From Escherichia phage vB_Eco_J-01: 64,000 nt of DNA. The number at the start of each line of letters is the position of its first letter. Within the stretch, counting starts at the first letter, position 1. Below are positions 57,365 to 57,427 of the stretch, piece by piece. Location: sequence record PQ438393.1; one strand, given 5' to 3'. Below the pieces are notes generated by a model. It saw only the letters and a program-made list of their open reading frames with translations, did not search any database and had not been told where the DNA came from. The translations under genes and the position numbers were made by a program.

Positions 57365-57393
57365 CTAATTTAATATGTGTTAATATGCCTACC
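57365..57393 (+). promoter_or_regulatory. sigma70-like promoter (TTGACT-N17-TTAATA) followed by 5' stem-loop
   Basis: TTGACT 57365-57370; imperfect hairpin CCTACCTA...TAGGTGGG at 57395-57418 before the RBS. Confidence 0.4.
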
Positions 57394-57427
57394 TACTCAG
57401 TTAGGTGGGCTTTTAAGGAGACACACC

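Follow-up and report, generated by a model that had tools for sequence, protein, structure and literature searches.

Two promoter-hairpin junctions in the replication module of a phi92-like phage: probably two different regulatory signals rather than one repeated cassette

Two short intergenic stretches of Escherichia phage vB_Eco_J-01 are described here, each of which combines a promoter-like sequence, a small hairpin, a Shine-Dalgarno (SD) sequence and an open reading frame (ORF). Both belong to a window of 64,000 nucleotides (sequence record PQ438393.1), which is the whole stretch of DNA that was analyzed. Site 1 is found between a gene of the RdgC family (Pfam PF04381) and a small ORF of 70 amino acids (aa), beyond which lie exonuclease and polymerase genes. 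Site 2 is found between thyX (PF02511) and an ORF of 136 aa that precedes the ribonucleotide reductase (nrd) genes. The two sites are located inside co-directional gene clusters of the module for replication and nucleotide metabolism, which occupies the plus strand from about 49 kb onward, up to the window's end; the minus strand carries the structural genes between about 3.9 and 41.5 kb. Over 56400-58800, the window shares 99.7% identity with Escherichia phage JLBYU50 and at least 95% with 55 phi92-like myoviruses (Stephanstirmvirinae, Justusliebigvirus), and the records of these relatives annotate mostly genes and ribosome-binding sites. The coordinates of both sites were confirmed base by base and are collected in Table 1.

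Table 1. Features of the two junctions, in window coordinates
Site	Feature	Position	Strand	Remarks
1	A/T-rich UP-like stretch	57341..57356	+	read from the sequence; overlaps the rdgC stop codon (57351-53); AAATAA invariant in relatives
1	-35 element TTGACT	57357..57362	+	CTTGACTT invariant in 6 lineages
1	Extended -10 element TGtTAATAT	57378..57386	+	hexamer TAATAT at 57381-57386; TGnTAnnAT kept in relatives
1	Hairpin GCCTACCTA-ctcagt-TAGGTGGGC	57387..57410	+	9 bp including one G.U pair; 6-nt loop
1	TTTT after the hairpin	57411..57414	+	TTTTT in Schickermooser; ATTAT (broken) in Klebsiella phages
1	SD AAGGAG (57415-20) and 70-aa ORF (ATG 57428, stop 57638-40)	57415..57640	+	N-terminus resembling a signal peptide
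2	-35 element TTGACT	63091..63096	+	TTGACTTT invariant in 6 lineages
2	-10 element TAGTAT	63114..63119	+	17-nt spacer; TA(G/A)TAT or TAAGAT in 11/11 aligned sequences
2	Predicted start, two A residues	63125..63126	+	6-7 nt past the -10; A12 and A13 invariant in the 11-sequence alignment
2	Hairpin AGGAGAGC-tat-GCTCTCCT	63131..63149	+	8 bp; 3-nt loop; no T-run after it
2	SD AAGGAG (63160-65) and 136-aa ORF (ATG 63171)	63160..63581	+	PHROG 15711, of unknown function; upstream of ribonucleotide reductase genes

Promoters at the two junctions

An earlier sequence-only reading had described, at 57365-57418 and 63091-63149, a recurring unit made of a TTGACT promoter with a spacer of 17 nt, a hairpin within about 15 nt and a ribosome-binding site. 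Both units exist, but position 57365 lies 8 nt too late for the beginning of the first one, and the spacer of 17 nt is that of site 2 only: the spacer of site 1 measures 18 nt, with a TG at 57378-79. The distance from the -10 element to the hairpin is indeed short in both cases, but it amounts to 0 nt in the first and 11 nt in the second, which does not correspond to a single geometry. The reading also had the two units preceding early genes; the ORFs downstream of both are of unknown function and belong to the module for replication and nucleotide metabolism.

Both sites carry credible sigma-70-type promoters, which would be read by the host RNA polymerase. The pattern TTGACT-N16-18-TAnnnT was found 10 times in the window for 4.2 occurrences expected, a number reached by none of 100 shuffles, and the bare TTGACT hexamer is depleted on the two strands (34 found, 53.9±7.5 expected). 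A generic sigma-70 scan of the window gave no excess (56 found, 59.9 expected). Promoters of the sigma-70 type have been listed across the related genome of rV5, 11 of them with an extended -10 (PMC3606486). Both promoters and their hairpins are kept in Phapecoctavirus, Klebsiella, Citrobacter and unclassified relatives in which the flanking genes are about 70% identical, and at both sites the intergenic elements are better conserved than these genes.

In AT-rich intergenic DNA, promoter-like hexamers may happen to lie beside a small inverted repeat by chance, and the lack of excess in the generic scan, together with a folding z score of only -1.5 at site 2, would be in line with such an origin. 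This explanation is nevertheless extremely improbable. The conservation at about 70% identity, combined with the compensatory changes in the stem of site 2 reported below, rules it out, and the stricter promoter pattern is enriched.

The hairpin between rdgC and the 70-aa ORF

At site 1, the hairpin directly abuts the -10 element and its 5' arm extends from 57387 to 57395. On the established geometry of sigma-70 promoters, we take the start of transcription to be at about 57392-57395, that is within this arm, so that the hairpin should not be able to form in the transcript of its own promoter. An RNA starting at 57393 shows no excess of structure (z +0.99), whereas the complete hairpin folds at -14.7 kcal/mol (z -2.48 relative to shuffles). 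The complete structure would thus be present only in RNA reading through from rdgC. The sequence-only reading had presented both hairpins as 5' stem-loops; this description suits site 2, where the hairpin lies inside the predicted transcript, but not site 1, where the 5' arm begins upstream of the predicted start.

The element is strongly preserved: the relatives show little or no variation in CTTGACTT, in the TG-extended -10 and over most of the hairpin, and the changes observed in the stem are one-sided, from T.G to T-A or C-G. The succession of hairpin, T-run and SD matches that of many intercistronic junctions of the window (6679-6718, 8681-8721, 29392-29434, 59727-59764), and the record of phage Schickermooser lists the homologous hairpin as an ARNold terminator of -13.9 kcal/mol. 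In the more distant Klebsiella phage KP13-16 the homologous hairpin (CAGGCA..TGCCTG) straddles the -10, and in an Erwinia vequintavirus the same junction contains a GC hairpin and no promoter. These last two arrangements imply that the role of the hairpin is independent of its presence in the promoter's own transcript. On these grounds, the most likely role of the site 1 hairpin is that of a terminator or attenuator for transcripts reading through from rdgC. Its GC-rich stem of 9 bp, its loop of 6 nt, its T-run and the ARNold call in a relative all recall an intrinsic terminator. The usual dimensions of such terminators (stem of at least 5 bp, loop of 3-8 nt) are shared by site 1 and site 2; site 1 differs from them in having only 4 T and a hairpin downstream of the -10, terminators usually preceding the promoter, and site 2 in lacking a T-run.

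The proposed mechanism is that of a compact insulator, a terminator within a promoter. RNA arriving from rdgC would contain the whole hairpin and would be terminated, attenuated or stabilized at its 3' end at this point, while RNA started locally would begin inside the 5' arm, lack the hairpin and continue into the small ORF and the exonuclease and polymerase genes. If true, such a design, in which a hairpin placed just past the -10 stops the incoming RNA and lets the local RNA escape, would be reusable in synthetic biology.

A comparable logic is known from the promoter-early stem-loops (PeSLs) of the T4-type phages RB49/phi1, PST and nt-1 (Arbiol et al. 2010, PMC2839356; Comeau et al. 2014, PMC4122927). 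Both sites of the window resemble PeSLs by the presence of a sigma-70-type promoter, an A/T-rich upstream region, a stem-loop, an SD and a start codon. Site 1 and its KP13-16 homologue would resemble them further by a stem-loop that adjoins or overlaps the -10 and acts on upstream transcription. Termination of upstream transcription by PeSL stem-loops was demonstrated with a reporter assay; at site 1 the T-run and the ARNold annotation in a relative hint at it indirectly. PeSL stem-loops are situated most often in the stretch separating the -35 from the -10 or over the -10, in contrast with the hairpin of site 2, located 11 nt downstream. PeSLs are, in addition, repeated and mutually alike motifs of about 100 bp which mediate insertions and deletions in hyperplastic regions beside ORFans, whereas each site of the window is a unique sequence whose syntenic position is fixed, within the replication module of a phage that is not of the T4 type. 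Both sites thus work like PeSLs but are not members of this group.

Two other loci of the minus strand display the classic PeSL-like layout of a terminator over a promoter. At 47643-47677, a hairpin of -11.4 kcal/mol (47643-47668) covers the spacer and the -10; at 37041-37091, a hairpin of -17.7 kcal/mol (37041-37082) does so as well and is followed by a T-rich tail.

The same grouping of GC hairpin, short T-run and AAGGAG, packed into about 40 nt, is also observed at 56144-56179 and 2644-2703. This compact intercistronic design is a terminator fused to the ribosome-binding site of the next gene.

The 70-aa ORF downstream of site 1 (57428-57640) belongs to PHROG 4641, of unknown function, and has no match in Pfam. 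Its N-terminal sequence resembling a signal peptide reads MKKLLVGLLLVISSYSYA, and the phi92 record annotates a signal peptide for the homologous ORF. Placed between recombination and replication genes, this ORF is conserved in phi92-like phages and as far as an Erwinia vequintavirus (39% identity).

The hairpin upstream of the 136-aa ORF

At site 2, the hairpin begins 11 nt past the -10, with the ATG at +51, and lies wholly inside the predicted transcript, the predicted 5' end of which is about 5 nt away. A T-run is lacking on both strands. Four homologous loci were obtained from IMG/VR with the 136-aa protein as query, a tblastn search of phage records provided further diversity, and the stem pairs were counted sequence by sequence in Python. 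The hairpin is present in all of the 10 distinct lineages, with 6-9 bp and -9.8 to -14.9 kcal/mol, and it starts 10-12 nt past the -10 in each of them (11 nt in 7/10). Double substitutions exchanging A-T and G-C pairs were found at 6 of the 8 stem positions; G.U pairs are confined to the sense strand and the loops vary freely. This preserved position, the covariation of the stem and the restriction of G.U pairs to the sense strand are good evidence that site 2 contains a selected plus-strand RNA hairpin.

The most likely role for this hairpin is that of a 5'-proximal stem-loop hindering decay that depends on the 5' end. Located near the end of the mRNA, it would slow the attack by RppH and RNase E on the message encoding the 136-aa ORF together with the nrd genes downstream. 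PMC9943677 describes RNase E as scanning from the 5' end, and the literature listed in PMC3997798 includes work on 5' stem-loops as mRNA stabilizers. The site 2 hairpin resembles two Escherichia coli stabilizers, those of ompA and papA (Emory, Bouvet and Belasco 1992, a work in that list), in being near a (predicted) 5' end and upstream of the SD.

Processing by RNase III had also been put forward for both hairpins. Substrates of this enzyme need about two helical turns, or about 20 bp. The stems of 9 bp and 8 bp are far below this length, so that RNase III is regarded here as excluded on anatomy, as read from the sequence. The RNase III sites of T7 early mRNA are likewise intercistronic hairpins of a virulent coliphage, but they comprise about 20 bp or more with internal loops.

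The two hairpins may also be considered together as acting mainly on read-through RNA, as attenuators, pause sites or 3' protectors, the effect of a 5' stem-loop being then incidental and each unit a composite insulator of terminator and promoter as in PeSLs. PeSL stem-loops terminate efficiently at various positions relative to the promoter (PMC2839356), read-through RNA in co-directional operons contains both hairpins, and the hairpins at 47643-47668 and 37041-37082 do overlap promoters. This view is nonetheless unlikely. The site 2 hairpin and its 10 homologues are all devoid of a T-run, and the distance of the hairpin to the -10 and to the A residues of the start is fixed, as would be expected if its position in its own transcript matters.

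A further property concerns the composition of the arms. In all 10 lineages, the 5' arm is made of purines (GGGAG-like, resembling an SD) and the 3' arm of pyrimidines (CUCC-like, resembling an anti-SD). This asymmetry would suit a site for an RNA- or DNA-binding protein or a translational switch toggling access to the SD, the more so as the 3' arm CUCUCCUU of the window can pair with the downstream AAGGAGA, as seen in some minimum free energy predictions. A weak match to the FourU thermometer was obtained at site 2, with 17.7 bits (E 0.25) for a gathering score of 60 and therefore far under threshold; with Rfam 15, only tRNAs match in the window and nothing was found at site 1. A protein site or a switch is however quite unlikely. 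The sequences of the arms vary while their pairing is kept, G.U pairs included, which points to an RNA structure and not to a sequence-specific operator. The alternative pairing with the SD is absent in the Phapecoctavirus lineages. The computed base-pair probabilities reveal no consistent difference in SD accessibility between the own transcript and the read-through RNA in 11 lineages (0.60 vs 0.60 for the window), and a transcript-specific translational switch was rejected on this basis.

Both sites are real and under selection, yet they are ordinary regulatory signals with two different jobs. The explanation that is preferred, and which is considered probable, is that of two independent, vertically inherited signals, namely a terminator within a promoter at site 1 and a 5' stem-loop stabilizer at site 2, rather than one cassette. 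The features, their conservation, the covariation and the absence of repetition and of mobility are observed directly, and we infer the start sites, the termination and the stabilizing effect. If so, the annotation of the phi92-like replication module gains two internal promoters, one probable terminator or attenuator and one conserved 5' leader hairpin.

Several observations weigh against this explanation. At site 1, the T-run of 4 T is under the criterion of 5 T in 8 used in the terminator scan of the window, which left the site unflagged, and the homologue of the Klebsiella phages combines a T.T mismatch in the stem with a broken T-run; termination may therefore be weak. At site 2, the hairpin folds at -12.4 kcal/mol (z -1.51), a value equaled or bettered by 17/200 shuffles, and the site is unremarkable on folding energy alone. 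The strict asymmetry between purine and pyrimidine arms is unexplained by a pure stabilizer role. The roughly 5 unpaired nucleotides preceding the hairpin, counted from a predicted 5' end, may exceed the classical tolerance of stabilizers such as those of ompA and papA; the work of Emory and Belasco in 1992 is said to have indicated that protection by a 5' stem-loop may reach its limit at about 5 unpaired nucleotides. Finally, a search of the literature on phi92-, phAPEC8-, rV5- and PBECO4-like phages retrieved no transcriptome, no previous account of these elements and no start-site, 3'-end or half-life data, the promoter list of rV5 being the one relevant item.

Repeated cassettes in related phages and the question of mobility

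The sequence-only reading had regarded the two sites as one recurring unit, comparable to the mobile regulatory cassettes of large virulent phages. Sites 1 and 2 share an identity of 0.53 in the promoter part and 0.19 downstream, for a mean of 0.47±0.07 and 0.25±0.06 respectively among all pairs of promoters in the window. They are no more alike than other promoters of the window and are thus not copies of one unit. The search for a recurrence of the motif disclosed no further copies, either in the window or in the JLBYU50 genome.

True repeated cassettes do exist in the relatives, outside the window. In the records of JLBYU50 (125.6-130 kb) and phi92 (136.1-145.4 kb), a repeated cassette stands in front of each of about ten small ORFs; it is composed of an A-rich stretch, TTGACA, 16-17 nt, TAnnnT, a ..CATAG motif, a hairpin of the GGCGGG..CCCGCC type without T-run, about 20 nt and the ATG. 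A profile built from 15 of these cassettes matches them with E values of 1e-16 to 1e-5, which gives 10 copies in JLBYU50 at E <=1e-5 and 12 copies in the phi92 locus of 9.2 kb. With RNAalifold, no structure was recovered from the MAFFT alignment of the cassettes, in which differences in loop length put the arms out of register.

Using the same profile (A4) with nhmmer, no match was found in the window below E 0.1. When the isolated sites were compared with it, site 1 obtained -1.2 bits, for the promoter part only (positions 7-30), and no match was reported for site 2; the best of seven promoter regions of the window reached 3.1 bits, and true copies 23-58 bits. A single repeated cassette is consequently rejected by pairwise identity, by the nhmmer search of the window and by the same profile applied to the isolated sites.

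The cassettes of the relatives show signs of recombination. The one located at gp231/gp232 of phi92 is a hybrid between the two cassettes found on either side of gene 220 in JLBYU50, a gene missing from phi92. In locus numbering, positions 4486-4640 of the phi92 locus correspond to 22700-22850 and 23030-23187 of the JLBYU50 locus, and the crossover took place in the -10/initial-transcribed region. An insertion or deletion of this crossover type is the signature described for the PeSLs of T4-type phages (PMC2839356). The same cassette family is represented by 13 copies in 13 kb of the Asteriusvirus jumbo phage PBECO4 (record 144-157 kb) and by two copies in a 12-kb locus of rV5 (record 103-116 kb). 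Parts of the early region of JLBYU50 are 82-93% identical to PBECO4 and rV5, which are unrelated phages, and this suggests an exchange across families of small ORFs together with their promoter/hairpin units. The cassette system was not found described in the literature searched. In the rV5 locus, the record of ORF 167 (locus 7532-7804), an ORF of the early region, notes a similarity to a hypothetical protein of RB49, the phage from which PeSLs were first defined; this hints at an exchange of ORFans between these phage groups.

On this background, it can be asked whether both sites are nonetheless copies of one mobile PeSL-like cassette moving genes, with a hairpin setting RNA stability through RNase III. 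The early region of the relatives carries a true repeated cassette, a hybrid copy bounds one gene insertion or deletion, the same family reaches PBECO4 and rV5, and site 2 has the spacing of the cassettes. The likeness to mobile cassettes claimed earlier therefore holds for this family of phages, but not for these two loci. Besides the lack of any excess identity or profile match, the two sites and their downstream ORFs occupy fixed syntenic positions in all 132-142 related records, without a single insertion or deletion at either site; the two junctions are covered to at least 80% in 132/132 and 112/142 related records, and 133-139 records contain the downstream ORFs. Mobility of the two sites is rejected on account of this synteny in all relatives. 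Given, in addition, stems of 8-9 bp for the approximately 20 bp required by RNase III and a site 1 hairpin predicted to lie outside its own transcript, this scenario is highly doubtful.

The layout of site 2, with TTGAC(A/T), 16-18 nt, TAnnnT, about 11 nt, a G-rich/C-rich hairpin without T-run, about 20 nt and the ATG, is nevertheless that of the Stephanstirmvirinae cassettes; site 1 differs from them by a hairpin at +0 with a T-run. The cassettes flank variable small ORFs and possess CATAG and a hairpin of the GGCGGG..CCCGCC type, unlike the two sites of the window. A tentative and rather unlikely proposal is that site 2, together with 38723-38785 on the minus strand, represents old, fixed descendants of an exchanged promoter/5'-hairpin cassette system, domesticated as operon promoters. 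This system, a host-type promoter joined to a 5'-terminal GC hairpin, would be shared among unrelated coliphage groups (phi92-like, rV5-like and PBECO4-like jumbo phages), would travel with small ORFs and would mediate a shuffling of genes in the manner of PeSLs. If this were true, the sites of the window would illustrate how mobile units become internal promoters of operons. In any case, a repeated promoter/5'-hairpin cassette with PeSL-like recombination, common to the relatives and to unrelated jumbo phages, is a more interesting lead than the two sites themselves.

A census of the JLBYU50 genome gives a measure of how common the arrangement is. Among 34 candidate intergenic promoters, about 12 are followed by a stable hairpin 8-15 nt past the -10, and the geometry of site 2 (-10, 9-12 nt, hairpin, about 20 nt, ATG) is likewise that of about 12/34. 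Of 23 leaders with a length of 35 nt or more, 17 reach a folding energy of -9 kcal/mol or better, for 7.06 expected from dinucleotide shuffles. This enrichment and the census indicate that placing a hairpin after a promoter is a genuine habit of this type of phage.

Two further examples are found on the minus strand of the window, both with an extended -10 promoter (TTGACA). At 38723-38785, upstream of the portal gene, a hairpin of -14.1 kcal/mol is placed at +11; at 26538-26596, upstream of a 238-aa ORF, a hairpin of -10.8 kcal/mol is placed at +2. Since these loci belong to the structural block, the layout is not restricted to early genes.

The remaining observations concern the surroundings of the two sites. 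The minus- and plus-strand gene blocks are separated by an AT-rich divergent intergenic region of 409 nt (48582-48990), in which promoter-like sites point both ways and a GC hairpin at 48804-48817 is accompanied by a T-run; this region probably serves for divergent control. Sixteen tRNAs are clustered at 42391-45136 on the minus strand, where extended -10 promoters are also present (44926, 44786 and 43486); a tRNA-like Rfam match at 44808-44886 does not figure in the ARAGORN list. Lastly, four of the records retrieved (MG065639, MG065645, MG065656 and MG065689) are labeled "Campylobacter phage" with Campylobacter jejuni as host, yet they are 99% identical to phi92-like coliphages, and these host labels look doubtful.

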